Part shown: positions 13,037 through 32,346 of the stretch, in pieces
How the letters are laid out: each line of letters opens with the position of its first letter
Position numbering within the stretch: position 1 is the first letter of the stretch
Assembly: GCF_044647545.1 (NCBI RefSeq)
Contig: NZ_CP172818.1
Direction: 5' to 3' (one strand)
DNA from: Escherichia coli
Lineage (GTDB): Bacteria > Pseudomonadota > Gammaproteobacteria > Enterobacterales > Enterobacteriaceae
DNA length: 64,000 nt
Notes under the pieces: generated by a model
What the model saw: the letters and a program-made list of their open reading frames with translations, nothing else
Told to the model about the DNA's origin: nothing
The model's database searches: none
Made by a program: the position numbers and the translations under genes

Positions 13037-16000
13037 ATGATTGAATGGATTATTCGTCGCTCGGTGGCGAACCGTTTTCTGGTGCTGATGGGCGCGTTGT
13101 TTCTGAGCATCTGGGGCACCTGGACCATCATTAACACGCCAGTGGATGCGCTGCCGGATCTCTCTGATGTACAGGTGATTATTAAAACCAGCTATCCCGG
13201 TCAGGCACCGCAAATCGTTGAAAATCAGGTGACTTATCCGCTAACCACCACCATGTTGTCGGTACCTGGCGCGAAGACAGTGCGCGGTTTCTCGCAGTTT
13301 GGCGACTCTTATGTGTATGTCATTTTTGAAGATGGCACCGATCCGTACTGGGCGCGCTCGCGGGTGCTGGAGTACCTCAATCAGGTACAGGGGAAGCTGC
13401 CTGCGGGAGTCAGCGCCGAGCTGGGGCCAGACGCCACGGGCGTTGGCTGGATCTATGAATATGCACTGGTAGATCGCAGCGGTAAGCACGATCTGGCCGA
13501 TTTACGCTCATTGCAGGACTGGTTTCTCAAATATGAGCTAAAAACCATCCCTGACGTTGCGGAAGTGGCGTCGGTGGGCGGTGTGGTGAAAGAGTATCAG
13601 GTGGTTATCGATCCTCAGCGCCTGGCGCAGTATGGCATCAGTCTCGCCGAAGTAAAAAGCGCGCTGGATGCTTCAAACCAGGAAGCGGGCGGTTCGTCGA
13701 TCGAACTGGCGGAAGCGGAATATATGGTGCGCGCCAGCGGATATCTGCAAACGCTCGACGACTTTAATCACATCGTTTTAAAAGCCAGTGAAAATGGCGT
13801 GCCCGTTTATCTGCGTGATGTTGCGAAGGTCCAGGTTGGCCCGGAGATGCGCCGGGGCATTACCGAACTGAACGGCGAAGGCGAAGTGGCGGGCGGGGTG
13901 GTGATCCTGCGTTCCGGCAAAAACGCCCGTGAAGTGATCGCTGCCGTGAAGGACAAACTGGAAACGCTGAAAAGCAGTCTGCCGGAAGGCGTGGAGATAG
14001 TTACAACATACGATCGCAGCCAGCTCATTGACCGCGCCATTGACAACCTCAGTGGCAAGTTGCTGGAAGAGTTTATTGTGGTGGCGGTAGTCTGTGCGCT
14101 GTTTCTCTGGCATGTGCGCTCGGCGCTGGTGGCGATTATTTCGTTGCCGCTGGGGTTGTGTATTGCTTTTATTGTCATGCACTTTCAGGGACTGAACGCC
14201 AATATTATGTCGCTGGGCGGTATTGCGATTGCCGTCGGGGCGATGGTCGATGCCGCTATCGTCATGATCGAGAATGCGCATAAACGGCTGGAAGAGTGGC
14301 AGCACCAGCATCCTGACGCCACGCTGGATAATAAAACGCGCTGGCAGGTGATTACCGATGCATCTGTTGAAGTGGGGCCGGCGCTGTTTATCAGTCTGCT
14401 GATTATCACGCTGTCGTTTATCCCGATCTTCACCCTGGAAGGGCAGGAAGGTCGTCTGTTTGGCCCGCTGGCGTTCACCAAAACCTATGCGATGGCGGGC
14501 GCGGCGCTACTGGCGATCGTAGTGATCCCGATCCTGATGGGCTACTGGATCCGTGGCAAAATTCCGCCGGAAAGCAGTAACCCGCTCAATCGCTTTTTGA
14601 TTCGTGTTTATCATCCGCTGTTGCTGAAAGTACTGCACTGGCCGAAAACCACGCTGTTGGTGGCAGCGCTTTCGGTGCTGACGGTACTCTGGCCGCTCAA
14701 TAAAGTTGGCGGGGAATTTTTACCGCAGATCAATGAAGGCGACTTGTTGTATATGCCATCGACGCTGCCGGGGATTTCCGCAGCAGAGGCGGCGAGCATG
14801 CTGCAAAAAACCGACAAGCTGATTATGAGCGTACCGGAAGTGGCGCGGGTATTTGGCAAAACCGGGAAAGCGGAAACCGCCACCGATTCAGCTCCACTGG
14901 AGATGGTAGAAACGACTATCCAGCTTAAGCCACAAGATCAGTGGCGGCCAGGCATGACGATGGACAAAATCATTGAGGAACTGGATAACACCGTGCGTCT
15001 GCCGGGGCTGGCGAATCTGTGGGTGCCGCCAATTCGTAACCGTATCGATATGCTCTCGACTGGCATTAAAAGCCCTATCGGCATTAAAGTTTCCGGCACT
15101 GTGCTGGCGGATATCGACACGATGGCGGAGCAAATTGAAGAAGTGGCGCGAACGGTGCCAGGCGTAGCTTCTGCTCTTGCCGAGCGGCTGGAAGGTGGGC
15201 GCTATATCAACGTTGAGATTAACCGTGAAAAAGCCGCGCGTTACGGTATGACGGTGGCGGATGTGCAATTGTTTGTGAAATCTGCGGTGGGCGGGGCGAT
15301 GGTTGGCGAAACGGTGGAAGGGATTGCCCGTTATCCAATTAATCTGCGTTATCCGCAAAGCTGGCGCGATAGCCCGCAGGCACTGCGCCAGTTGCCGATC
15401 CTCACGCCGATGAAGCAGCAAATCACCCTGGCAGACGTGGCCGACGTTAAAGTCTCTACCGGACCGTCGATGCTGAAAACCGAGAATGCGCGCCCGACGA
15501 GCTGGATTTATATCGATGCCCGCGATCGTGACATGGTGTCGGTGGTTCACGATCTGCAAAAAGCGATAGCTGAAAAAGTGCAGTTAAAACCGGGCACCAG
15601 CGTGGCATTCTCCGGGCAGTTCGAGCTACTGGAGCGCGCCAACCATAAGCTGAAACTGATGGTGCCGATGACGCTGATGATCATCTTCGTGCTGTTGTAC
15701 CTGGCGTTCCGTCGGGTGGGCGAAGCGTTGCTGATTATCAGCAGCGTACCGTTTGCGCTGGTGGGCGGCATCTGGTTGCTGTGGTGGATGGGCTTTCATC
15801 TTTCCGTGGCGACGGGCACCGGTTTTATTGCCCTTGCCGGGGTCGCCGCCGAATTTGGCGTGGTGATGCTGATGTATTTACGTCACGCCATAGAGGCCGA
15901 GCCGTCGTTGAATAATCCGCAAACATTCAGCGAGCAGAAGCTGGATGAGGCGTTGTATCACGGCGCGGTCCTGCGCGTGCGCCCGAAAGCGATGACGGTG

Positions 16001-16180
16001 GCGGTGATTATCGCTGGTCTGCTGCCGATTCTGTGGGGAACGGGAGCAGGTTCAGAGGTGATGAGCCGGATTGCCGCGCCGATGATTGGCGGCATGATCA
16101 CCGCGCCTTTGCTATCGCTGTTTATTATCCCGGCGGCGTATAAGCTGATGTGGCTGCACCGACATCGGGTACGGAAATAA
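13037..16180 (+). CDS. cusA: RND-family heavy-metal efflux pump, inner-membrane component
   Basis: 1047-aa ORF with 12-TM RND topology and large periplasmic loops; recognised as CusA. Confidence 0.95.
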
Positions 16181-16281
16181 AAGCAGGATACCCCGTTTAA
16201 CCGTGTGGATTGTGTCTTGCGACGATGGGCACTAAATGTTAAAAGGTGCCCCTCAACAAAAAAGACACACAGGGGAAAGGC

Positions 16282-17658
16282 GTGAAAAACGCGTCAACCG
16301 TATCGGAAGATACTGCGTCGAATCAAGAGCCGACGCTTCATCGCGGATTACATAACCGTCATATTCAACTGATTGCGCTGGGTGGCGCAATTGGTACTGG
16401 TCTGTTTCTTGGCATTGGCCCGGCGATTCAGATGGCGGGTCCGGCTGTATTGCTGGGCTACGGCGTCGCCGGGATCATCGCTTTCCTGATTATGCGCCAG
16501 CTTGGCGAAATGGTGGTTGAGGAGCCGGTATCCGGTTCATTTGCCCACTTTGCCTATAAATACTGGGGACCGTTTGCGGGCTTCCTCTCTGGCTGGAACT
16601 ACTGGGTAATGTTCGTGCTGGTGGGAATGGCAGAGCTGACCGCTGCGGGCATCTATATGCAGTACTGGTTCCCGGATGTTCCAACGTGGATTTGGGCTGC
16701 CGCCTTCTTTATTATCATCAACGCCGTTAACCTGGTGAACGTGCGCTTATATGGCGAAACCGAGTTCTGGTTTGCGCTGATTAAAGTGCTGGCGATCATC
16801 GGTATGATCGGCTTTGGCCTGTGGCTGCTGTTTTCTGGGCACGGCGGCGAGAAAGCCAGTATCGATAACCTCTGGCGCTACGGTGGTTTTTTTGCCACCG
16901 GCTGGAATGGGCTGATTTTGTCGCTGGCGGTGATTATGTTCTCCTTCGGCGGGCTGGAGCTGATTGGGATTACTGCCGCTGAAGCGCGCGCTCCGGAAAA
17001 AAGCATCCCGAAAGCAGTGAATCAGGTGGTGTATCGCATCCTGCTGTTTTATATCGGTTCACTGGTGGTTTTACTGGCACTCTATCCGTGGGTGGAAGTG
17101 AAATCCAACAGTAGCCCGTTTGTGATGATTTTCCATAATCTCGACAGCAACGTGGTAGCCTCTGCGCTGAACTTCGTCATTCTGGTAGCATCATTATCGG
17201 TGTATAACAGCGGGGTTTACTCTAACAGCCGCATGCTGTTTGGCCTTTCTGTGCAGGGTAATGCGCCGAAGTTTTTGACTCGCGTCAGCCGTCGCGGTGT
17301 GCCGATTAACTCGCTGATGCTTTCCGGAGCGATCACTTCGCTGGTGGTGTTAATCAACTATCTGCTGCCGCAAAAAGCGTTTGGTCTGCTGATGGCGCTG
17401 GTGGTAGCAACGCTGCTGTTGAACTGGATTATGATCTGCCTGGCGCATCTTCGTTTTCGTGCTGCGATGCGACGTCAGGGACGTGAAACACAGTTTAAGG
17501 CGCTGCTTTATCCGTTCGGCAACTATCTCTGCATTGCCTTCCTCGGCATGATTTTGCTGCTGATGTGCACGATGGATGATATGCGCTTGTCAGCGATTCT
17601 GCTGCCGGTGTGGATTGTATTCCTGTTTGTAGCATTTAAAACGCTGCGTCGGAAATAA
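16282..17658 (+). CDS. pheP: Phenylalanine-specific permease (APC family)
   Basis: Start taken at GTG (VKNASTVSEDTASNQEPTLHRGLHNRH…) preceded by a Shine-Dalgarno-like AGGGGAAAGG; 458 aa; amino-acid permease signature. Confidence 0.9.
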   Translation: MKNASTVSEDTASNQEPTLHRGLHNRHIQLIALGGAIGTGLFLGIGPAIQMAGPAVLLGYGVAGIIAFLIMRQLGEMVVEEPVSGSFAHFAYKYWGPFAGFLSGWNYWVMFVLVGMAELTAAGIYMQYWFPDVPTWIWAAAFFIIINAVNLVNVRLYGETEFWFALIKVLAIIGMIGFGLWLLFSGHGGEKASIDNLWRYGGFFATGWNGLILSLAVIMFSFGGLELIGITAAEARAPEKSIPKAVNQVVYRILLFYIGSLVVLLALYPWVEVKSNSSPFVMIFHNLDSNVVASALNFVILVASLSVYNSGVYSNSRMLFGLSVQGNAPKFLTRVSRRGVPINSLMLSGAITSLVVLINYLLPQKAFGLLMALVVATLLLNWIMICLAHLRFRAAMRRQGRETQFKALLYPFGNYLCIAFLGMILLLMCTMDDMRLSAILLPVWIVFLFVAFKTLRRK

Positions 17659-17689
17659 GGCATTCACGCTACATCCGACAAAACGATGT

Positions 17690-17723
17690 CCGCTCTCATC
17701 CATTCGATGAGAGCGGTTTTTTT
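17690..17723. terminator. Hairpin terminator between convergent pheP and ybdG
   Basis: 11-bp perfect stem CCGCTCTCATC / GATGAGAGCGG with 5-nt loop followed by TTTTTTT, 30 bp after the pheP stop and just before the ybdG stop on the other strand. Confidence 0.6.
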
Positions 17724-17725
17724 AA

Positions 17726-19021
<1,296 letters not shown>

Positions 19022-19080
19022 TTATGCAAATCAGGAGAATCTGAGGGGAAATAGCCGGGCAGATGCCCGGCAAGAGAGAA

Positions 19081-19734
19081 TTACACTTCGGTTAAGGTGA
19101 TGTTTTGCGGCAGACGAGATTTCGGCAGCGTAGCGTTAAAATCTTCAACGCTGTGATGACCCACCGGAACAACTACCAGACTGGTGTAGCCTTTCTCTTT
19201 CAGACCAAATTCTGCATCGAGGATTGCGGCGTCAAAACCTTCGATGGGTACCGCGTCCAGACCCAGCGCCGCCACGCCGAGCAGGAAGTTGCCGACGTTG
19301 AGATAAACCTGTTTTGCCATCCACTCTGCATCATCATGCAGATCTTTACGGTGCATATCGGCGAAGAACTTGCGACCTTTATCGTTCGCGGCTTTCGCTT
19401 CCGGCGTGGCAAAGCGGCCATCGGCATCTTCCTGGTCAACAACCAGCTTCAGCCAGGCATCGTCCATCGCGGTTTTTGCACAGAACACCACGACGTGCGA
19501 GGCATCAAGCATTTTACGCTCGTTGAACACGTAATTACCGGCAGCGGATTTGGCAACACGCGCTTTACCTTCTTCCGTGCTGGCAACAATAAAATGCCAC
19601 GGCTGGGAGTTGGTGCTGGATGGGCTGTATTGCAGTAGCGTTTTTATCTGCTCGGCCTGTTCCGGGGTAAGTTTTTTGCTGGCATCAAATGCCTTAGTGG
19701 AATGACGCTTTAAGGCGACAGAAATGATATCCAT
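19081..19734 (-). CDS. nfsB: Oxygen-insensitive NAD(P)H nitroreductase
   Basis: 217-aa [26 protein letters not shown]… recognised as NfsB (nitroreductase fold). Confidence 0.92.
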
Positions 19735-19812
19735 AAAGACTCCATGTGAAAGTAATTTTGCGTGCCAGCAGATTACAAGGATCGAGATGAAATGGTAAGC
19801 GAGAAAAATGCG

Positions 19813-20196
19813 CTATTGATTTACGGTTGAGTCAGGACGCACTCTTTTTTGATCGCGTTTAGCCAGACCATCAACCACCAGATTCCACGAATCGTTGATC
19901 AGATCGCGAAGTAACGCTTCGGAGATTTCCTCGCCGGGATACACCGAAATCCAGTGCTTTTTATTCATGTGATACCCTGGCTTGATGCTTGGGTATATTT
20001 GCTGATTTAGCAGGGATTTTTGTGGATCGGACTTCAGATTGATAAAGGGGACGCCGCGCAGCTCCGACGACAGCATAAAAATCTTGCCGCCAATTTTAAA
20101 AACATCGAACTCCGGGCCAAAAGGCCAGCAAAGCTCGACAAAGGGTAACTCAAGAGCCAGGCGTTTCGCCGTTTCGTGCAGTGATTGCTTATCCAT
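19813..20196 (-). CDS. ybdF: Uncharacterised small cytoplasmic protein
   Basis: Start chosen at the internal Met ([19 protein letters not shown]…) giving about 122 aa; the longer 167-aa ORF would overlap ybdJ and is rejected. Confidence 0.75.
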
Positions 20197-20260
20197 AAAC
20201 GTTCCTTTAGGCGAAGGAGAATAAGCAAAGTATGCCGCGAAGTTCGGCGATAATCGACGT

Positions 20261-20509
20261 TTAATCCGCCAGCGAGAACCAGCGTCGCCAGATAAAGCGC
20301 AGAACAAAATACTCAATAGCGCCCAGCACTAAAAACCACAGACAAAACAATAAAGTGTAAAGCTGGCTAAGATCCATCAGATGGAACGTGGTCACCAGTT
20401 TTTGTGCCAGCGTCAGCCCCAATGCGGGGGCGGGAAGCAGCAGGCAAGAGAGGAAAGCCATCAGCAAAATGCCTGCTGCGGTGGTCAAGGTTTCTAAAGG
20501 GTGTTTCAT
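20261..20509 (-). CDS. ybdJ: Small inner-membrane protein of unknown function
   Basis: 82-aa ORF with two hydrophobic helices (…[21 protein letters not shown]… and …[18 protein letters not shown]…). Confidence 0.7.
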
Positions 20510-20574
20510 AACATTGTTAAATGTAAGTTAAAACACCATTGTCAGGGATATTCTTCTGTAAGGCAATTCCCGGC

Positions 20575-21702
<1,128 letters not shown>

Positions 21703-22029
21703 TTATGTTGGCGTTTTCTATTCAGTATAGAAGTGGGAGCGACTGGGCGAGATGCGGAAGTTCTGGAATATTTCTTTTTTTGGTGATGGTGAACTGATTG
21801 TGAGTGAAGCAATTTAGCTACTTTTTCAATGTGGCAAGTTATGGCACAGCTGGCTGGTGGCGAAGAATTTTGACGATTGAGGCATGCAGAAAAAACGGGC
21901 TCAGCTTCAGTTGATCAAATGGGGAGTGAGAAGTCCGAAACAGGATTCACTGTATAAATAAACAGCTATTTTGCTGAGGAAGCGTAAGATAACGGCGGGT
22001 GCCTGAAGCTTTCCGGTTTCAGGTTAACT

Positions 22030-22100
22030 CTGAGGTCTGGAAAGATGAAGCCCCAGGACGATATTTCTATCAACCCTGGGGCTGCCACTCCAAACCCGAA
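22030..22100 (-). ncRNA. sokE: Predicted Sok-type antisense RNA overlapping the mokE translation start (coordinates approximate)
   Basis: By analogy with hok/sok loci the antitoxin RNA is antisense to the mok start; on the minus strand a candidate promoter (TTGCCT, 17-nt spacer, TACCAT) sits near 22105-22135 and an inverted repeat (GCCCCAGG…CCTGGGGC) near 22049-22081. Ends not determined. Confidence 0.3.
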
Positions 22101-22233
22101 CAATTTGGATGGTAGTCCCTTCTTCGCATGGAGGCAATATAAACATGCTGACGAAATATGCCCTTGTGGCAGTCATAGTGCTGTGTTTAACGGTGCTGGG
22201 ATTTACGCTTCTGGTCGGCGACTCGCTGTGTGA
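22045..22233 (+). CDS. mokE: mok-type overlapping reading frame that couples translation to hokE
   Basis: 62-aa ATG-initiated ORF overlapping the first two-thirds of hokE in a different frame, the arrangement typical of hok/mok/sok loci. Confidence 0.4.
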
Positions 22234-22297
22234 GTTTACGGTGAAGGAACGTAATATTGAGTTTAAGGCTGTTCTCGCTTACGAACCGAAGAAGTAG
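22145..22297 (+). CDS. hokE: Hok-family type I toxin (small membrane peptide)
   Basis: 50-aa peptide [50 protein letters not shown]: single TM helix plus the conserved Hok C-terminal region. Confidence 0.85.
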
Positions 22298-22418
22298 CCG
22301 TTGTGCGGGGAGCAATCCCCGCATATCCGGTTGTCAGGTCAGGATGGTAAGGCACCTGCTTTACACTTTCGCCCGTGGTCAGTGATGGCTGCGGGCGAAT
22401 CGTACCAGATGTTGTCAA

Positions 22419-23039
22419 TTAATCGTGTTGGCACAGCGTTATGACTATTTTTTCTTTTATCTGCCAGTGCACAGCAAACTGCTCATCCTCTAGTCGAATG
22501 ATGATCTGCTGTTTATTCCAGCTAATTATCTGATAATCCAGAAAACCTTGAGCGGCCTGTATCTTGCTTGCCTTAAATGCGCTTTCTTTGGCGGAAAATG
22601 CCAGTGTCAGCGCCAGAGAAAAGGTTAAACCGCATTCTGCGAGTCGCTCGTGTTCTGCTGGTGTAATAATGTTGTCTGTCAATTCTCTTGCGGTTTGTAC
22701 AGAGAAAATCTCTTCGATATCAATGCCAATCGGTTGACGAGATACCACGGCTAATGCCGTAGTCCCACAGTGACTAATGCTGCCGTATACCCCCGCAGGC
22801 CACACAGGTTGGCGTAGCTCGCCGATTGCGGGCACACATTTATAGCCATATTCCCGCAGCGCATAAACTGCAGCGATCCGTCCGGCTAAATGCTCTGTTT
22901 TACGTTTACGTCCAGCGTGTTGCAGTTGCGCGTAGTGTGGCAGCCAGAGTAAATCCTGCTCACAAAAACTCGCCGGATCAAACTCAACAAAATGCAGCGT
23001 ATGTCCTACAAAGGGGAGGGCGGTATGCGTAGTTTTCAT
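22419..23039 (-). CDS. entD: Enterobactin synthase 4'-phosphopantetheinyl transferase
   Basis: Start chosen at MKTTHTALPF… (206 aa); the longer track ORF start is rejected; PPTase family. Confidence 0.88.
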   Translation of the reverse strand: MKTTHTALPFVGHTLHFVEFDPASFCEQDLLWLPHYAQLQHAGRKRKTEHLAGRIAAVYALREYGYKCVPAIGELRQPVWPAGVYGSISHCGTTALAVVSRQPIGIDIEEIFSVQTARELTDNIITPAEHERLAECGLTFSLALTLAFSAKESAFKASKIQAAQGFLDYQIISWNKQQIIIRLEDEQFAVHWQIKEKIVITLCQHD

Positions 23040-23213
23040 GTCGACCATATTAGAGACTGATGACAAACGCAAAACTGCCTGATGCGCTACGCTTATCAGG
23101 CCTACGTGGTCCTGCAATATATTGAATTGGCAAGATTTTTGTAGGCCGGATAAGGCGTTCACGCCGCATCCGGCATGAACGACGCGCACTTTGTCAACAA
23201 TCTGACGTTAGCA

Positions 23214-25454
23214 TCAGAAGTGAGTGTTTACGCTCATATACCACGTACGTCCCGGCTCGTTATAGGTATACGCCCCGGCACCTGCGATATAGTTGGCTCC
23301 TGCCAGATCGCCCGTGGTCTGGGCATTACCCGCACGCCACAAACGTTTGTCGAACAGGTTGTCCACGCCGCCGGTCAGACTGACATTCTTCGTCACATCC
23401 CAGGTCGCGCTCAGGCCAACAATGCTGTACGGGCTGATTTCTTTGGTTTCCGGTCCAACCGCTGGCTGACCTTTATAGTTGTACTTCTTCGGCTGCTGCT
23501 TGCCGTACCAGGTGAAGGTTGTTTGCATCGACAAATCTTCCCGTGCCTGCCAGCTCAGCGTTGAGTTCAACGTATACTCCGGGATGATCGACAAACGGTC
23601 GCCCGTGGTTTTGTTTTCACTCTTCAGCATATAAGTGATGTTATTGGTCCACATCACCGTTTCGCTAACCGGTACGTTTAACGATCCTTCCAGACCTTCA
23701 ACCACCGCTTTCGGTACGTTATCCCACTGATAGAGATCGGTGCCGACTGCGTTTTGCCCTACAGCCACATAGCCCGCTTCAATCTTATTGCGATAATCGT
23801 TACGGAACCAGGTGACGCCCGCCAGCCAGCCGTCGCGTTTGAACTCCAGACCAATCTCTTTGTTGATGCTGGTTTCCGCTTTCAGGTCATCATTACCTTG
23901 CAGATAGCAGCCGCCCGCGCTGGCATAGCAACCCTGACCTTTACTGTAGAGAATGTAGTTCGGGTTAGTCTGGTACAGGCTCGGTGCTTTATAGGCGCGG
24001 GCAATGCCCATTTTCAGCGTGAAGTCATCGCCTAAACCTTGCGATATGTTCAGCGCCGGGCTCCAGTTATTGCCAACAATGCTGTGATGATCGAAACGCA
24101 GCCCCGGCGTTACGATGGTGCTGTCAGTCAGCTCCATATTGTTTTCGGCAAATAGCGAGAAAATTTCTGCTTTTGAATACGGGCTACGGTCGGTGGCACT
24201 CACACCATCAATAGCACCGCCAGTATTCGTCCCAGTGAGCGCCTGGGTGTTGGAACTTAAATCCTTCATCCGCTGCTGATTCCACTCCGTACCCAGCGTC
24301 AGCGTCTGGTTAACGAGGAAATCAATCGGCAGGTTAACTTCGCTGTGCAGCATCACGTCATCGAGATCGATATCGACGAAATCCTGTGTCGCTTTTTCGT
24401 TAAATTTCCCTTCGGTACCGCCCGCCAGACCTTCCGGAATACGCGAGTTACGGGTGTGTTCGTACTGCACCCAGTTGCTGGTGGTCACGCCGTTATCCCA
24501 GCCACCGTTCCAGGTCAGCGAGTAGTTCTGGCGATACAGGCGGTTGGTTTCATCGCCATATTTCGAGCGAGTGTAAGCGTCAGAGTTGGTGTTCTGAGTA
24601 TCACCCGCATACAGGTTACCCTGGCGGCTGTAGCCCGCTTCCAGTTCGAGTGATTGCAGAGGCGCGAAGTCCCAGCGCACTACGCCATTAATATCTTTGT
24701 TAATTACCCCTTCGCGCCCGGCTGGTAACGTCGTGGCATACGTTCCGGCACGCGCGGACTGATGGCCCTGGTTGATATCCCACGCGTCAGCCTGGGTTTT
24801 GTCGAGGTTGCCATACAAGCGGAAGCTGAATTCGTCGCCCAGCGGACCGGTCAGGCTGAAGTTGGTGCGTTTGGTGGCACCTTCCTCTTTATGTTCTGGC
24901 GCATTGAAATAAGCATCCCAGGAGCCGTGCCACTCACCGCTGCCTTTTTTGGTAATGATGTTAACCACGCCGCCCGCCGCGCCGTTGCCATAACGCGCAG
25001 CTGCCGGACCACGCAGAACTTCAATACGTTCAATCATTTCAGGTGGCACCCAGGAGGTATCACCACGGGTATCGCGCTCGCCACGCCAGCCCTGACGCAC
25101 TGAGTTACGGCTGCTTACCGGCTTGCCGTCAATCAAAATCAGCGTGTTTTCCGGACCCATGCCGCGAATATCAATCTGGCGGTTATTCCCACGCTGACCA
25201 CTGGTGGAGTTACCGGTCAGGTTAACGCCTGGCATGGTACGGATGATCTCCGACACATCACGGGCAACGGGGTTTTTGCGGATTTCATCTGCGGTGATGG
25301 TCGAAACGCCAGGCGCCTGCAAGTTCTGCTCGGCGGCGGTAACGACAATGGTATCGTCATGTGAAACAGGAGTATCGGTCGGCTCTTGTGCCTGTGCTAC
25401 CCCATAAATCCCCAGATTGACCAACAAGGCCAGGGAATGAATCTTCTTGTTCAT
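23214..25454 (-). CDS. fepA: TonB-dependent ferric enterobactin outer-membrane receptor
   Basis: 746-aa precursor from MNKKIHSLALLVNLGIYGVAQA; TonB box DTIVVTA near the N-terminus; C-terminal …VNTHF terminal Phe. Confidence 0.95.
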   Translation of the reverse strand: MNKKIHSLALLVNLGIYGVAQAQEPTDTPVSHDDTIVVTAAEQNLQAPGVSTITADEIRKNPVARDVSEIIRTMPGVNLTGNSTSGQRGNNRQIDIRGMGPENTLILIDGKPVSSRNSVRQGWRGERDTRGDTSWVPPEMIERIEVLRGPAAARYGNGAAGGVVNIITKKGSGEWHGSWDAYFNAPEHKEEGATKRTNFSLTGPLGDEFSFRLYGNLDKTQADAWDINQGHQSARAGTYATTLPAGREGVINKDINGVVRWDFAPLQSLELEAGYSRQGNLYAGDTQNTNSDAYTRSKYGDETNRLYRQNYSLTWNGGWDNGVTTSNWVQYEHTRNSRIPEGLAGGTEGKFNEKATQDFVDIDLDDVMLHSEVNLPIDFLVNQTLTLGTEWNQQRMKDLSSNTQALTGTNTGGAIDGVSATDRSPYSKAEIFSLFAENNMELTDSTIVTPGLRFDHHSIVGNNWSPALNISQGLGDDFTLKMGIARAYKAPSLYQTNPNYILYSKGQGCYASAGGCYLQGNDDLKAETSINKEIGLEFKRDGWLAGVTWFRNDYRNKIEAGYVAVGQNAVGTDLYQWDNVPKAVVEGLEGSLNVPVSETVMWTNNITYMLKSENKTTGDRLSIIPEYTLNSTLSWQAREDLSMQTTFTWYGKQQPKKYNYKGQPAVGPETKEISPYSIVGLSATWDVTKNVSLTGGVDNLFDKRLWRAGNAQTTGDLAGANYIAGAGAYTYNEPGRTWYMSVNTHF

Positions 25455-25611
25455 TGTTTTATTCCTGCATTTTTGCCACGAATTGCAACTGTCGGGCATG
25501 GTCGTCATCAATACGACGCACCCCGCTACCGCGAAAACCTTTGATCCTGAAAGACACGCAGTGCAGTTGGTTAATTAATGTCCGCGCTTCCCACGGCGCG
25601 CCATTACGCTA

Positions 25612-25676
25612 TTGCAAATGCAAATAGTTATCAATAATATTATCAATATATTTCTGCAATCAATGAAAAATTGCAC
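25612..25676. promoter_or_regulatory. Fur-box cluster in the fepA/fes divergent promoter region
   Basis: AT-rich hexamer array GCAAATGCAAATAGTTATCAATAATATTATCAATAT resembling the GATAAT-type Fur consensus, plus TGCAAT…ATTGCA inverted repeat. Confidence 0.55.
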
Positions 25677-25696
25677 AGTAAACATGGGGTTATGGT

Positions 25697-26899
25697 GTGA
25701 CGGCGTTAAAAGTAGGAAGTGAGAGCTGGTGGCAGTCGAAACATGGCCCGGAATGGCAGCGTCTGAATGACGAAATGTTTGAGGTCACTTTCTGGTGGCG
25801 TGATCCCCAAGGTTCTGAAGAATACTCGACGATAAAGCGCGTATGGGTCTACATCACTGGTGTGACCGATCACCATCAGAACAGCCAGCCCCAGTCGATG
25901 CAGCGAATTGCAGGCACCAACGTCTGGCAGTGGACGACACAGCTCAATGCCAACTGGCGCGGCAGCTACTGCTTTATTCCCACCGAACGCGATGACATTT
26001 TTTCTGCACCATCCCCCGATCGCCTCGAATTACGTGAAGGCTGGCGAAAACTATTACCCCAGGCGATAGCCGATCCGCTGAATCCACAAAGCTGGAAAGG
26101 CGGGCGAGGGCACGCTGTTTCTGCACTCGAAATGCCGCAAGCGCCTCTGCAACCGGGATGGGATTGTCCGCAAGCGCCAGAAACGCCTGCCAAAGAAATT
26201 ATCTGGAAAAGTGAACGGTTGAAAAATTCACGCCGTGTATGGATTTTTATCACCGGCGATGCAACAGCAGAAGAACGCCCGCTGGCAGTTTTGCTTGATG
26301 GTGAATTTTGGGCGCAGAGTATGCCCGTCTGGCCTGCGCTAACTTCGCTGACCCATCGTCGGCAACTTCCTCCCGCCGTGTATGTGTTGATCGATGCTAT
26401 CGACACCACGCACCGCGCCCACGAACTGCCGTGTAATGCGGATTTCTGGCTGGCAGTACAGCAAGAGTTATTACCCCTGGTGAAAGCTATTGCCTCTTTT
26501 AGCGATCGCGCCGATCGCACCGTGGTCGCCGGGCAGAGTTTTGGTGGGCTTTCCGCGCTGTATGCCGGACTGCACTGGCCTGAACGCTTTGGCTGTGTAT
26601 TAAGCCAGTCAGGATCGTACTGGTGGCCGCATCGGGGCGGGCAGCAAGAAGGTGCTTTACTTGAGCAACTTAAAGCTGGTCAAGTTAGCGCCGAAGGTCT
26701 GCGCATTGTGCTGGAAGCGGGTATTCGCGAGCCGATGATCATGCAGGCCAATCAGGCGCTGTATGCGCAATTACACCCCATAAAAGAATCCATTTTCTGG
26801 CGTCAGGTTGACGGCGGACATGATGCGCTTTGTTGGCGCGGTGGCTTGATGCAGGGGCTAATCGACCTCTGGCAACCACTTTTCCATGACAGGAGTTGA
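25697..26899 (+). CDS. fes: Ferric enterobactin esterase
   Basis: ORF from a GTG start (MTALKVGSESWWQSKHGPEWQ…), 400 aa; esterase GQSFGG (GxSxG) motif present. A later start giving about 374 aa is possible. Confidence 0.88.
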   Translation: MTALKVGSESWWQSKHGPEWQRLNDEMFEVTFWWRDPQGSEEYSTIKRVWVYITGVTDHHQNSQPQSMQRIAGTNVWQWTTQLNANWRGSYCFIPTERDDIFSAPSPDRLELREGWRKLLPQAIADPLNPQSWKGGRGHAVSALEMPQAPLQPGWDCPQAPETPAKEIIWKSERLKNSRRVWIFITGDATAEERPLAVLLDGEFWAQSMPVWPALTSLTHRRQLPPAVYVLIDAIDTTHRAHELPCNADFWLAVQQELLPLVKAIASFSDRADRTVVAGQSFGGLSALYAGLHWPERFGCVLSQSGSYWWPHRGGQQEGALLEQLKAGQVSAEGLRIVLEAGIREPMIMQANQALYAQLHPIKESIFWRQVDGGHDALCWRGGLMQGLIDLWQPLFHDRS

Positions 26900-26901
26900 A
26901 T

Positions 26902-27120
26902 ATGGCATTCAGTAATCCCTTCGATGATCCACAGGGAGCGTTTTACATTTTGCGCAATGCGCAGGGGCAATTCAGTCTGTGGCCGCAACAATGCCTCTTA
27001 CCGGCAGGCTGGGACATTGTGTGTCAGCCGCAGTCACAAGAGTCCTGCCAGCAGTGGCTGGAAGTCCACTGGCGTACTCTGACACCGGCGAATTTCACCC
27101 AGTTGCAGGAGGCACAATGA
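26902..27120 (+). CDS. ybdZ: MbtH-like protein, NRPS adenylation-domain partner
   Basis: 72-aa ORF MAFSNPFDDPQGAFYILRNAQGQFSLWPQQ… with the conserved Trp pattern of MbtH-like proteins; its ATG lies 2 bp after the fes stop and its stop overlaps the entF ATG. Confidence 0.85.
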   Translation: MAFSNPFDDPQGAFYILRNAQGQFSLWPQQCLLPAGWDIVCQPQSQESCQQWLEVHWRTLTPANFTQLQEAQ

Positions 27121-30100
27121 GCCAGCATTTACCTTTGGTCGCCGCACAGCCCGGCATCTGGATGGCAGAAAAACTGTCGGATTTACCCTCCGCCTGGAGC
27201 GTGGCGCATTACGTTGAGTTAACCGGAGAGGTTGATGCGCCATTACTGGCCCGCGCGGTGGTTGCCGGATTAGCGCAAGCAGATACGCTGCGGATGCGTT
27301 TTACGGAAGATAACGGCGAAGTCTGGCAATGGGTCGATGATGCGCTGACGTTCGAACTGCCAGAAATTATCGACCTGCGAACCAACATTGATCCGCACGG
27401 TACTGCGCAGGCATTAATGCAGGCGGATTTGCAACAAGATCTGCGCGTCGATAGCGGTAAACCACTGGTCTTTCATCAGTTGATACAGGTGGCGGATAAC
27501 CGCTGGTACTGGTATCAGCGTTATCACCATTTGCTGGTCGATGGGTTTAGTTTCCCGGCCATTACCCGCCAGATCGCCAACATTTACTGCGCATGGCTGC
27601 GTGGCGAACCTACGCCTGCTTCGCCGTTTACGCCTTTCGCTGATGTAGTGGAAGAGTACCAGCAATACCGCGAAAGCGAAGCCTGGCAGCGTGATGCGGC
27701 ATTCTGGGCGGAACAGCGTCGTCAATTGCCGCCGCCCGCGTCACTTTCTCCGGCACCTTTACCGGGGCGCAGCGCCTCGGCAGATATTCTGCGCCTGAAA
27801 CTGGAATTTACCGACGGGGAATTCCGCCAGTTGGCTACGCAACTTTCAGGTGTGCAGCGTACCGATTTAGCCCTTGCGTTGGCAGCCTTGTGGCTGGGGC
27901 GATTGTGCAACCGCATGGACTACGCTGCCGGATTTATCTTTATGCGTCGACTGGGCTCGGCGGCGCTGACGGCTACCGGACCCGTGCTCAACGTTTTGCC
28001 GTTGGGTATTCATATTGCGGCGCAAGAAACGCTGCCGGAACTGGCAACCCGACTGGCGGCTCAACTGAAAAAAATGCGTCGCCATCAACGTTACGATGCC
28101 GAACAAATTGTCCGTGACAGCGGGCGAGCGGCAGGTGATGAACCGCTGTTTGGTCCGGTACTCAATATCAAGGTATTTGATTACCAACTGGATATTCCTG
28201 ATGTTCAGGCGCAAACCCATACCCTGGCTACCGGTCCGGTTAATGACCTTGAGCTGGCCCTGTTCCCGGATGAACACGGTGATTTGAGTATTGAGATCCT
28301 CGCCAATAAACAGCGTTACGATGAGCCAACGTTAATTCAACACGCTGAACGCCTGAAAATGCTGATTGCCCAGTTCGCCGCGGATCCGGCGCTGTTGTGC
28401 GGCGATGTCGATATTATGCTGCCAGGTGAATATGCGCAGCTGGCGCAGATCAACGCCACTCAGGTTGAGATTCCAGAAACCACGCTGAGCGCGCTGGTGG
28501 CAGAACAAGCGGCAAAAACACCGGATGCTCCGGCGCTGGTTGATGCGCGTTACCAGTTCAGCTATCGGGAAATGCGCGAACAGGTGGTGGCGCTGGCGAA
28601 TCTGCTGCGTGAGCGCGGCGTTAAACCAGGCGACAGCGTGGCGGTGGCATTACCGCGCTCGGTCTTTTTGACCCTGGCGCTACATGCGATTGTTGAAGCT
28701 GGTGCGGCCTGGCTACCTCTGGATACCGGCTATCCGGACGATCGCCTGAAAATGATGCTGGAAGATGCGCGTCCATCGCTGTTAATCACCACCGACGATC
28801 AACTGCCGCGCTTTGCCGATGTTCCAGATTTAACCCGCCTTTGCTATAACGCCCCGCTTATACCACAGGGCAGTGCGCCGCTGCAGCTTTCACAACCGCA
28901 CCACACGGCTTATATCATCTTCACCTCCGGTTCCACCGGCAGGCCGAAAGGGGTAATGGTCGGGCAGACGGCTATCGTTAACCGCCTGCTCTGGATGCAA
29001 AACCACTACCCGCTTACAGGCGAAGATGTCGTTGCCCAAAAAACGCCGTGCAGTTTTGATGTCTCGGTGTGGGAGTTTTTCTGGCCGTTTATTGCCGGGG
29101 CTAAACTGGTGATGGCTGAACCGGAAGCGCACCGCGACCCGCTCGCTATGCAGCAATTCTTTGCCGAATATGGTGTAACAACCACGCACTTTGTGCCGTC
29201 GATGCTGGCGGCATTTGTTGCATCGATGACGCCGCAAACCGCTCGTCAGAGTTGCGCGACGTTGAAACAGGTTTTCTGTAGTGGTGAGGCCTTACCGGCT
29301 GATTTATGCCGCGAATGGCAACAGTTAACCGGCGCGCCGTTGCATAATCTGTATGGCCCGACGGAAGCAGCGGTAGATGTCAGCTGGTATCCGGCCTTTG
29401 GCGAGGAACTGGCACAGGTACGCGGCAGCAGTGTGCCGATTGGTTATCCGGTGTGGAATACGGGCCTGCGCATTCTCGATGCGATGATGCATCCGGTGCC
29501 GCCGGGTGTGGCGGGAGATCTCTATCTCACCGGTATTCAACTGGCGCAGGGGTATCTTGGACGACCCGATCTGACAGCCAGCCGCTTTATTGCCGATCCT
29601 TTTGCGCCAGGTGAACGCATGTACCGTACCGGAGATGTTGCCCGCTGGCTGGATAACGGCGCGGTGGAGTATCTCGGGCGTAGTGATGATCAGCTAAAAA
29701 TTCGCGGGCAGCGTATCGAACTGGGCGAAATTGATCGCGTGATGCAGGCGCTGCCGGATGTCGAACAAGCCGTTACCCACGCCTGTGTGATTAACCAGGC
29801 GGCAGCCACTGGTGGTGATGCGCGTCAGTTGGTGGGCTATCTGGTGTCGCAATCAGGTCTGCCGTTGGATACCAGCGCATTACAGGCGCAGCTTCGTGAA
29901 ACATTGCCACCACATATGGTACCGGTGGTTCTGCTGCAACTTCCACAGTTACCACTTAGCGCCAACGGCAAGCTGGATCGCAAAGCCTTACCGTTGCCTG
30001 AACTGAAGGCACAAGCGCCGGGGCGTGCGCCGAAAGCGGGCAGTGAAACGATTATCGCCGCGGCATTCTCGTCGTTGCTGGGTTGTGACGTGCAGGATGC

Positions 30101-30998
30101 CGATGCTGATTTCTTTGCGCTTGGCGGTCATTCGCTACTGGCAATGAAACTGGCAGCGCAGTTAAGTCGGCAGTTTGCCCGTCAGGTGACGCCGGGTCAG
30201 GTGATGGTCGCGTCAACCGTCGCCAAACTGGCAACGATTATTGATGGTGAAGAAGACAGCACCCAGCGCATGGGATTCGAAACCATTCTGCCGTTGCGTG
30301 AAGGTAATGGTCCGACGCTGTTTTGTTTCCATCCGGCATCCGGTTTTGCCTGGCAGTTTAGCGTGCTCTCGCGTTATCTCGATCCACAATGGTCGATTAT
30401 TGGCATCCAGTCGCCACGCCCTCATGGCCCCATGCAGACGGCGGCAAACCTGGATGAAGTCTGCGAAGCGCATCTGGCAACGTTACTTGAGCATCAACCG
30501 CACGGCCCTTATTACCTGCTGGGTTATTCGCTGGGCGGTACGCTGGCGCAGGGTATTGCGGCGCGGCTGCGTGCCCGTGGCGAACAGGTGGCATTTCTTG
30601 GCTTGCTGGATACCTGGCCGCCAGAAACGCAAAACTGGCAGGAAAAAGAGGCTAATGGCCTGGACCCGGAAGTGCTGGCGGAGATTAACCGCGAGCGCGA
30701 GGCCTTCCTGGCGGCACAGCAGGGAAGTACTTCAACGGAGTTGTTTACCACCATTGAAGGCAACTACGCTGATGCTGTGCGCCTGCTGACGACTGCTCAT
30801 AGCGTACCGTTTGAAGGTAAAGCGACGCTGTTTGTTGCTGAACGCACGCTTCAGGAAGGTATGAATCCCGAACGCGCCTGGTCGCCGTGGATTACGGAGC
30901 TGGATATCTATCGTCAGGATTGTGCGCATGTGGATATTATCTCGCCGATGGCGTTTGAAAAAATAGGGCCGATTATTCGTGCGACGCTAAATAAGTAA
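27117..30998 (+). CDS. entF: Enterobactin non-ribosomal peptide synthetase (C-A-PCP-TE, serine-activating)
   Basis: 1293-aa product from MSQHLPLVAAQPGIWMAEKL; adenylation core FTSGSTGRPKG, carrier-domain GGHSL motif, thioesterase GYSLGG motif all visible. Confidence 0.95.
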   Translation: MSQHLPLVAAQPGIWMAEKLSDLPSAWSVAHYVELTGEVDAPLLARAVVAGLAQADTLRMRFTEDNGEVWQWVDDALTFELPEIIDLRTNIDPHGTAQALMQADLQQDLRVDSGKPLVFHQLIQVADNRWYWYQRYHHLLVDGFSFPAITRQIANIYCAWLRGEPTPASPFTPFADVVEEYQQYRESEAWQRDAAFWAEQRRQLPPPASLSPAPLPGRSASADILRLKLEFTDGEFRQLATQLSGVQRTDLALALAALWLGRLCNRMDYAAGFIFMRRLGSAALTATGPVLNVLPLGIHIAAQETLPELATRLAAQLKKMRRHQRYDAEQIVRDSGRAAGDEPLFGPVLNIKVFDYQLDIPDVQAQTHTLATGPVNDLELALFPDEHGDLSIEILANKQRYDEPTLIQHAERLKMLIAQFAADPALLCGDVDIMLPGEYAQLAQINATQVEIPETTLSALVAEQAAKTPDAPALVDARYQFSYREMREQVVALANLLRERGVKPGDSVAVALPRSVFLTLALHAIVEAGAAWLPLDTGYPDDRLKMMLEDARPSLLITTDDQLPRFADVPDLTRLCYNAPLIPQGSAPLQLSQPHHTAYIIFTSGSTGRPKGVMVGQTAIVNRLLWMQNHYPLTGEDVVAQKTPCSFDVSVWEFFWPFIAGAKLVMAEPEAHRDPLAMQQFFAEYGVTTTHFVPSMLAAFVASMTPQTARQSCATLKQVFCSGEALPADLCREWQQLTGAPLHNLYGPTEAAVDVSWYPAFGEELAQVRGSSVPIGYPVWNTGLRILDAMMHPVPPGVAGDLYLTGIQLAQGYLGRPDLTASRFIADPFAPGERMYRTGDVARWLDNGAVEYLGRSDDQLKIRGQRIELGEIDRVMQALPDVEQAVTHACVINQAAATGGDARQLVGYLVSQSGLPLDTSALQAQLRETLPPHMVPVVLLQLPQLPLSANGKLDRKALPLPELKAQAPGRAPKAGSETIIAAAFSSLLGCDVQDADADFFALGGHSLLAMKLAAQLSRQFARQVTPGQVMVASTVAKLATIIDGEEDSTQRMGFETILPLREGNGPTLFCFHPASGFAWQFSVLSRYLDPQWSIIGIQSPRPHGPMQTAANLDEVCEAHLATLLEHQPHGPYYLLGYSLGGTLAQGIAARLRARGEQVAFLGLLDTWPPETQNWQEKEANGLDPEVLAEINREREAFLAAQQGSTSTELFTTIEGNYADAVRLLTTAHSVPFEGKATLFVAERTLQEGMNPERAWSPWITELDIYRQDCAHVDIISPMAFEKIGPIIRATLNK

Positions 30999-31011
30999 AT
31001 TTATATTATCT

Positions 31012-31060
31012 ATAAACCCATAATTACAATAAATGATTATGGGTTTATTATTTATTTAAT
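31012..31060 (+). terminator. AT-rich 13-bp perfect inverted repeat followed by T-rich tract downstream of entF
   Basis: ATAAACCCATAAT … ATTATGGGTTTAT with about an 11-nt loop, then TTATTTATTTAATTTAT; about 14 bp after the entF stop. Confidence 0.5.
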
Positions 31061-31212
31061 TTATCAATTTAACGGATATTTCTCTGAAATAGAGTGAATG
31101 TTGCATTCAGTGGGAGGAATTTACAAACTTCAGCTTCGGATAAATCTCACCAACTGGTAAAGTGGGGGCCGTGGAGATTTACTCTTATTGGACCCATTTC
31201 AGGTTATACCGC

Positions 31213-32346
31213 ATGTCATCACTGAATATTAAACAGGGAAGTGACGCTCATTTTCCCGAGTATCCTCTGGCGTCGCCCAGTAATAATGAAATTGATTTAC
31301 TTAATCTAATCGACGTTTTATGGCGGGCAAAAAAAACGGTCATGGCGGTCGTTTTTGCGTTTGCCTGCACAGGATTGCTGATCTCTTTCATCCTGCCGCA
31401 AAAATGGACCAGCGCGGCGGTTGTCACGCCTCCAGAACCTGTTCAGTGGCAAGAACTGGAGAAAACATTCACTAAGCTTCGTGTGCTGGATCTGGATATC
31501 AAAATTGATCGTACAGAAGTATTTAACCTGTTTATCAAGAAGTTTCAGTCTGTTAGCTTACTAGAAGAGTACCTGCGCTCATCACCTTATGTGATGGACC
31601 AATTAAAAGAGGCGAAAATCGACGAACTGGATTTGCATCGAGCTATCGTCGCATTGAGCGAAAAAATGAAAGCGGTTGATGACAATGCCAGTAAGAAAAA
31701 AGATGAACCGTCACTGTATACCTCCTGGACGCTAAGTTTTACCGCGCCAACCAGTGAAGAGGCGCAGACCGTTTTGAGCGGGTATATCGATTATATCTCT
31801 GCGTTGGTGGTGAAAGAGTCGATAGAAAACGTCCGTAATAAACTGGAGATCAAAACCCAGTTTGAAAAAGAAAAACTGGCTCAGGATCGCATTAAAACGA
31901 AAAATCAACTTGATGCAAACATTCAGCGCCTCAATTATTCACTCGACATTGCCAACGCGGCAGGAATTAAAAAGCCCGTTTACAGTAATGGTCAGGCCGT
32001 TAAAGATGACCCCGATTTCTCTATTTCTCTCGGCGCAGACGGTATTGAACGCAAACTGGAAATTGAAAAAGCGGTTACTGACGTTGCGGAATTGAACGGT
32101 GAATTACGTAATCGTCAGTATCTTGTTGAGCAGCTAACAAAAGCAAATATCAACGATGTGAATTTTACGCCGTTTAAATATCAGTTAAGCCCGTCATTGC
32201 CAGTGAAAAAAGACGGTCCGGGTAAGGCGATTATTGTGATCCTTTCTGCGATGATCGGCGGGATGGTGGCTTGTGGTGGCGTGCTGTTGCGCCATGCGAT
32301 GGCATCCAGAAAACAGGATGCCGTGATGGAAGAGCACTTAGTTTAA
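31213..32346 (+). CDS. fepE: Wzz-type polysaccharide co-polymerase (chain-length regulator) encoded inside the enterobactin cluster
   Basis: Start at MSSLNIKQGSDAHFPEY… (377 aa); two TM helices at the N- and C-terminal ends flanking a coiled-coil-rich periplasmic domain; visibly lower GC than neighbours. Confidence 0.85.
   Translation: MSSLNIKQGSDAHFPEYPLASPSNNEIDLLNLIDVLWRAKKTVMAVVFAFACTGLLISFILPQKWTSAAVVTPPEPVQWQELEKTFTKLRVLDLDIKIDRTEVFNLFIKKFQSVSLLEEYLRSSPYVMDQLKEAKIDELDLHRAIVALSEKMKAVDDNASKKKDEPSLYTSWTLSFTAPTSEEAQTVLSGYIDYISALVVKESIENVRNKLEIKTQFEKEKLAQDRIKTKNQLDANIQRLNYSLDIANAAGIKKPVYSNGQAVKDDPDFSISLGADGIERKLEIEKAVTDVAELNGELRNRQYLVEQLTKANINDVNFTPFKYQLSPSLPVKKDGPGKAIIVILSAMIGGMVACGGVLLRHAMASRKQDAVMEEHLV

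Follow-up and report, generated by a model that had tools for sequence, protein, structure and literature searches.

In the layout of the hok mRNA family described by the Gerdes laboratory, a fold-back element and a terminal hairpin at the 3' end are removed by 3' processing. For the plasmid R1 hok/sok system, Gerdes and co-workers proposed a model that combines fold-back closure of the mRNA, 3' processing and control by Sok. On the chromosome of K-12, IS elements have been described as the cause of hok inactivation (Pedersen & Gerdes 1999, as cited in PMC2654758), and for the IS186 copy downstream of gef/hokC, disruption of the fold-back element and of processing is presumed (PMC3562002). An IS186 copy beside the hok/sok locus between cysH and cas3 has also been described (PMC3903273). 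IS186 prefers targets of the form 5'-GGGG(N6/N7)CCCC and is GC-specific (PMC6925257), and a hotspot for the element is reported in the lon promoter (SaiSree et al. 2001, as cited in PMC3861542 and PMC6925257). More generally, the hok/sok loci of E. coli and Klebsiella are neighbours of insertion hotspots for mobile elements, and the authors of that study raise the possibility that their disruption is adaptive (bioRxiv 10.1101/527788). A large deletion termed hokE_large, which removed the fep/ent operons, arose in evolution experiments (PMC4557228).

Here we describe the interval between hokE and entD in a 64-kb stretch of E. coli DNA, referred to as the window. The interval is an ordinary wild-type hokE 3' UTR with an unoccupied IS186 hotspot. 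The inactivation of K-12 hok loci by IS elements, the target preference of IS186 and the hok/sok hotspots are already published; only the numbers and a three-state polymorphism within one clone go beyond these reports.

The hokE/sokE locus and the hokE-entD interval

The elements of the locus upstream of the hokE stop codon, together with the adjoining interval and entD, are as follows.

21950-21965, no strand assigned: LexA-box-like palindrome CTGTATAAATAAACAG, a candidate and the sole CTGT-N8-ACAG match in the window
21985-21990, plus strand: putative hokE -10 hexamer TAAGAT, placed by its spacing to the conserved GGCGGGTGC start motif
21994-22004, plus strand: putative 5' end of the hokE mRNA and tac-like pairing element, placed by homology only
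22041-22101, minus strand: putative sokE antisense RNA gene, transferred by alignment from MG1655 sokE (607733..607792)
22109-22297, plus strand: probable mokE, an in-frame upstream extension of hokE (62 aa), by analogy with mokC
22145-22297, plus strand: hokE toxin gene (50 aa), with the stop codon TAG at 22295-22297
22298-22418, no strand assigned: hokE-entD interval, 121 bp between the CDS ends
22419-23039, minus strand: entD, convergent with hokE, stop at 22419-22421, matching 4PPT_N and ACPS

The hokE product matches Pfam PF01848 (HOK_GEF) over residues 5-46 with 34 bits, against a cutoff of 22, and in RefSeq an identical sequence carries the name hokE (WP_000956465.1). Codon 46 of hokE (22280-22283) reads TAC followed by G. 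At sites of this type, A-to-I editing that changes Tyr to Cys has been reported in the hokB, hokC, hokD and hokE mRNAs (bioRxiv 10.1101/2025.08.07.668861).

The LexA-box-like palindrome sits upstream of the hokE promoter, some 30-45 nt before the putative transcript start. hokE has been listed among genes with a LexA box (PMC2826370, PMC11228462), yet despite this box it is not induced by AZT in K-12 (PMC11228462); K-12, in which this observation was made, represents the IS186-disrupted state. Consensus promoter and terminator scans of positions 21700-22500 returned no calls, so we infer the hokE promoter and the terminal hairpin from homology only. For the promoter, the distance from TAAGAT to GGCGGGTGC equals that of TATAAT, TAGAAT or TATTAT in the hokC, pndA and srnB loci.

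The Rfam sok model RF01794 matches at 21997-22153 on the plus strand with 79.4 bits (gathering score 59). This match lies on the sense strand, in the hok mRNA leader, while MG1655 sokE is annotated on the opposite strand; RF01794 appears to model the hok leader rather than the antisense RNA. The assignment of mokE follows MG1655, where mokC is annotated likewise and shares its stop codon with hokC. A second open reading frame at 22045-22233 was considered as mokE and rejected, as it is without a Pfam match and owes its frame to an extra C at 22059 that is specific to the lineage. This extra C, within the hokE leader and sokE, gives CAGGACGAT where six other aligned alleles have CAGGAGAT; in the predicted Sok-target hairpin it is part of the loop, and it shifts the frame that starts at ATG 22045 out of the hokE frame. 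Antisense to the leader, at about 21908-22177 on the minus strand, RefSeq carries a 270-nt 'hypothetical protein'. It is marked as a pseudogene with an internal stop in a matching genome and as frameshifted in several others, and is probably not a real gene. Beyond entD, the entD-fepA intergenic region (23098-23185) has a match to ES036 (CssrF) of 42.2 bits (gathering score 37.6), next to a REP/naRNA4-like hairpin that stays below its own threshold.

The initial annotation had described an uninterrupted 120-bp spacer without IS186 between hokE and entD. The absence of the element is borne out by our searches. The interval holds only trivial open reading frames; the 23-nt terminal repeat of IS186 is found nowhere in the 64-kb window with up to three mismatches allowed; and searches of the window with the 1,337-bp IS186 core (blastn) and with InsL (tblastn) gave chance-level matches only. 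Neither the 23-bp terminal inverted repeats nor the IS4-family InsL transposase of an IS186 insertion is therefore present. The interval is indeed uninterrupted, measuring 121 bp, but it is far from a featureless spacer.

Elements and predicted folding of the hokE 3' UTR

Three structural elements follow the hokE stop codon.

22302-22325, plus strand: post-stop GC hairpin with a 10-bp stem (UGUGCGGGGA / UCCCCGCAUA) and loop GCAA, present in both folds described below; it coincides with the IS186 target
22350-22360, plus strand: predicted fold-back-inhibition-like element AGGCACCUGCU (11 nt), pairing with 21994-22004
22368-22399, plus strand: terminal 14-bp hairpin seen in the folds, the probable 3' end of full-length hokE mRNA

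The span 21994-22403 (410 nt) was folded with its 5' end taken from the GGCGGGTGC motif common to the hokC, srnB and pndA loci. The minimum free energy structure has -176.3 kcal/mol (z = -7.35) and is closed by an outermost 11-bp helix between 21994-22004 and 22350-22360. Folded alone, the 3' UTR forms the two hairpins at 22302-22325 and 22368-22399 (z = -6.2); the 14 bp given for the latter are those of the full-length fold. The duplex between the 5' end and the fold-back element, calculated with RNAduplex, reaches -21.5 kcal/mol, a value equalled in 10 of 500 shuffles. Long-range 5'-3' pairing is thus predicted computationally for hokE.

A similar arrangement is predicted for related loci. 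In a cross-matrix of seven hok loci (hokE, hokC without IS186, a pndA-type, an srnB-type, a Vibrio, a Proteus and a Salmonella plasmid locus), the first 16 nt pair best with the 3' UTR of their own locus in five cases. Across the hok loci compared, the complement of a locus's own 5' end lies at +47 to +78 nt past the stop codon, and the paired sequences vary from locus to locus, as in srnB (GGGUGUCUG with CAGACACCC) and Vibrio (GGGAGCU with AGCUCCC). The 5'-3' duplexes of hokC (equalled in 130/500 shuffles) and of the Salmonella plasmid locus (171/500) are not distinguishable from shuffled sequence. A post-stop hairpin is found in all ten hok loci compared, with different sequences and energies of -18 to -27 kcal/mol.

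We also aligned hokE alleles from the window, MG1655 without IS186, EcN, O157:H7, O121, KV7 and the second copy of an island-carrying isolate. With 93-100% similarity between them, these alleles hold no covariation evidence: neither the 5' element nor the fold-back element varies, nor do most positions of the stems, and the approach was set aside as uninformative.

Tandem hokE/sokE units occur in many genomes, including O157:H7, O121 and APEC 102026, as two to three copies of 502-504 bp. The repeat unit corresponds to about 21929-22398 of the window and ends at the terminal hairpin. Between its hokE and entD, one isolate carries an island that encodes SDR oxidoreductases and an ABC transporter, and positions 3029-3989 of its locus sequence hold a tandem hokE. 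In the tandem duplications and at the island insertion alike, homology to the window breaks at about 22398.

Two strong hairpins between convergent genes only 121 bp apart would also suit a termination zone shared by hokE and fepA-entD, with the hairpins acting as bidirectional terminators or RNA stabilisers and the 5'-end complementarity having no regulatory role; the shuffle result for the hokE duplex is on its own modest support for pairing. However, on neither strand does a U-tract follow either hairpin, which is also why the terminator scan did not call the terminal hairpin. Post-stop hairpin, complement of the own 5' end and terminal hairpin follow one another in this order in plasmid and chromosomal hok loci whose neighbours are quite different, and the tandem duplications carry the whole hokE unit to about 22398. 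We therefore consider it unlikely that shared termination is the main role of the interval. With high probability, the 121 bp represent the intact 3' UTR of a hokE/sokE type I toxin-antitoxin locus that never received IS186.

By analogy with the plasmid system, 5'-3' closure would hold the full-length hokE mRNA in a compact form that cannot be translated and is refractory to Sok antisense RNA. Slow trimming from the 3' end would take off the terminal hairpin and the fold-back element, and the trimmed mRNA would refold so that mok/hok could be translated unless SokE binds. The post-stop hairpin would then form the protective 3' end of the trimmed RNA. An IS186 in this first hairpin separates the toxin gene from the fold-back element and terminal hairpin; with 1.3 kb placed between them, native closure and normal processing of the interrupted transcript would be impossible. 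The lineage of the window retains the wild-type arrangement. A fold of K-12 reading through into IS186 loses the native closure (z = -2.5 compared to -7.35); as its 3' end is arbitrary, we discarded it as evidence and mention it for illustration only. An intact hokE structure need not mean an active system, and chromosomal hok loci tested by others were without post-segregational killing.

Occupancy of the IS186 target site

The post-stop hairpin contains an empty IS186 target.

22307-22320, no strand assigned: unoccupied preferred target GGGGAGCAATCCCC, of the form GGGG(N6)CCCC, the sole such site in the 64-kb window
22308-22319, no strand assigned: sole copy of the 12 bp GGGAGCAATCCC, which occupied genomes carry on both sides of IS186

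The sequence at 22307-22320 conforms to the published preference GGGG(N6/N7)CCCC, and GGGAGCAATCCC sits within the palindrome GCGGGG-AGCAAT-CCCCGC. The insertion point lies 10-22 nt past the hokE stop codon, inside the 3' UTR, and precedes both the predicted fold-back element and the predicted terminal hairpin. It was this location that made the initial suggestion of a bearing on hokE regulation reasonable, although the consequence itself is something we infer.

In MG1655 (NC_000913.3), IS186 occupies 608007..609351, between hokE (stop at 607988) and entD (stop at 609459). The element comprises a 1,337-bp core with the 12-bp direct repeat GGGAGTAATCCC on either side, and its junctions read ...GCGGGGAGTAATCCC / ATAAGCGC...IS186...GCGCTTAT / GGGAGTAATCCCCGC... 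The reference strain does carry IS186 at this position, and the insertion site given in the initial annotation was right. The name given to it, insL1, was not: in current RefSeq naming of MG1655, insL1 denotes the copy beside hokC, and the hokE copy is IS186B/insL2 (b0582). Two readings of the empty site had been offered, a non-MG1655 lineage or the pre-insertion state, and both hold. Differences between the window and MG1655 number 10 in the 400 bp to the left of the site and 39 in the 700 bp to its right, and the 12 bp that occur on both sides of IS186 in MG1655 and in clone-mates of the window are present once in the window itself.

These clone-mates belong to a group of genomes that match the window at 100% identity for 11-17 kb and whose closest records include one named 'strain ST648'. 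Of the 60 best matches over 11 kb, 42 have an empty site, and the other 18 are occupied by an additional 1,349 bp. All three states (empty, IS186 forward and IS186 inverted) are represented by genomes whose flanks are the same as those of the window. Removal of the IS186 core and one 12-bp copy from ampC_0069 reproduces window positions 15000-32000 with 0 mismatches in 17,001 bp; its element is inserted forward and is identical to K-12 IS186B at 1337/1337 positions. In RS571, the same IS186 lies inverted in the same 12 bp, again with flanks identical to the window.

We compared seven occupied configurations from seven genomes, which differ in flank haplotype, orientation and allele of the target-site duplication (TSD).

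K-12 MG1655: TSD allele T, forward
ampC_0069: TSD allele C, forward, window-identical flanks
MB06233: TSD allele C, forward, different flanks
RS571: TSD allele C, inverted, window-identical flanks
AST262: TSD allele T, inverted
APEC 102026 (APEC102026): TSD allele C, inverted, behind three tandem hokE copies
VE-T9: TSD allele C on the left (hokE side) and T on the right (entD side), inverted, with an IS150 also upstream of hokE

The duplication of the 12-bp target around IS186 in all seven sequenced examples, in both orientations, indicates that the site is really used. In six of the seven, both TSD copies carry the local allele, which points to several independent insertions. The mismatched copies in VE-T9, together with its IS150, suggest recombination across the IS or a second insertion at the locus, and changes of orientation within one clone may reflect in-situ inversion between the 23-bp terminal repeats.

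We further counted the junction states in 5,426 complete E. coli genomes, requiring that at least 80% of the junction query be covered; the resulting occupancy counts are approximate.

Empty junction: 3,646 genomes, the majority state (67%)
IS186 forward junction: 1,741 genomes; about 1/12 of sampled rows belong to another hok paralogue, leaving an estimate of roughly 1,600 for hokE
IS186 inverted junction: 842 genomes; in an even sampling about 3/9 rows are hokE, an estimate of roughly 250-300

About six of the nine evenly sampled rows with an inverted junction represent the cysH-cas3 hok locus (about 600 genomes). The three classes total slightly more than 5,426 because of tandem hokE copies and cross-matching paralogues. 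IS186 is thus present at hokE in about one third of complete E. coli genomes, and the empty state is found in strains as unlike as Nissle (EcN), O157:H7 and O121:H19. The hokE site is a recurrent IS186 hotspot that has been struck in both orientations.

Precise loss of IS186, by slippage between the 12-bp direct repeats, would leave a locus that looks exactly like the window, and the clone-mates with identical flanks that carry the element show that it is active, or was present, in this lineage. However, 42 of the 60 closest genomes lack the element and the others carry it in two orientations, a pattern that a few gains explain more simply than many precise losses. The empty state also prevails across the species, in the diverse strains named above, and precise excision of IS elements is a rare event. 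That the window is a revertant is accordingly very unlikely. Still less credible, to a degree that makes it negligible, is an IS186 that is present in the genome and was collapsed out of the assembly. IS elements are often misassembled in short-read assemblies, but a collapsed element normally breaks the contig or leaves a duplicated target, and here there is one clean 12-bp copy. The same empty junction recurs in all of the complete genomes counted as empty, including the 42 near-identical ones among the best 60 matches. A site that never received the element is the reading we retain.

Insertions in the post-stop hairpin are repeated, occur in both orientations and are still turning over within one clone. 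This raises the question of whether they spread because it is advantageous to separate an SOS-linked toxin mRNA from its fold-back element and terminator, making the presence or absence of IS186 a selected on/off polymorphism of hokE. We regard this as a rather doubtful proposal; if true, the role of the post-stop hairpin in chromosomal hok mRNAs would go beyond that of a passive hotspot for IS186.

For studies of hokE regulation, K-12 is a disrupted reference. Its hokE 3' elements are split off by IS186, and results on hokE expression in K-12 may therefore not transfer to strains like the one that the window comes from. The same separation applies to B-derived strains such as C43(DE3) and to roughly a third of complete genomes. 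The empty, forward and inverted clone-mates with identical flanks provide near-isogenic natural variants in which the function of the hokE 3' UTR could be addressed.

Comparison with related hok loci and the lon hotspot

Among the closest described systems is hokE/sokE of K-12 (b4415/b4835), which is orthologous and, as in the window, flanked by ybdK and entD. Once IS186 is taken out in silico, the 410-nt unit of K-12 shows a handful of differences from the window, and the two share the LexA box, the sokE region, the fold-back element and the terminal hairpin. The main difference is the IS186 with its 12-bp duplication inside the post-stop hairpin of K-12. In addition, the window has C at 22313 in the hairpin loop where K-12 has T, Val8 instead of Ala8 in HokE, and the extra C at 22059 in the leader.

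The plasmid systems R1 hok/sok, srnB (F-type) and pndA (IncI/IncB/IncK) resemble the window locus in encoding a Hok-family toxin of about 50 aa behind a leader of about 150 nt that starts with GGCG/GCGG; the antisense RNA that targets this leader has a putative counterpart in sokE of the window. They also share the post-stop GC hairpin, followed by the complement of the own 5' end, some 50-75 nt past the stop codon, and then by a terminal hairpin. In contrast to these three systems, hokE of the window is chromosomal and preceded by a LexA box, and the protein identity is only 40-47%. The plasmid hok hairpins compared are without the strict GGGG(N6-7)CCCC target, except for one truncated hok-like locus.

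On the chromosome, the strict target is matched by the hairpins of hokE, hokC and the cysH-cas3 hok locus, and all three have been found occupied. At K-12 hokC (gef), IS186A lies in the equivalent post-stop hairpin with the 12-bp duplication GGGAGTGATCCC, and at the cysH-cas3 hok locus IS186 lies in the equivalent hairpin with the duplication GGGGTAAAACCC; both differ from hokE in paralogue and position. In strain 1223, the cysH-cas3 locus encodes a HokE-like paralogue of 50 aa and carries IS186 in its own post-stop hairpin GCGGGGGTAAAACCCCGC.

The lon promoter hotspot is similar to the hokE site in that a GGGG(N6/7)CCCC target has received repeated, independent IS186 insertions. The insertions at lon, however, change a promoter and were selected in the laboratory, whereas those at hokE strike an RNA-structure element in the 3' end of a toxin mRNA and are polymorphic among natural isolates.
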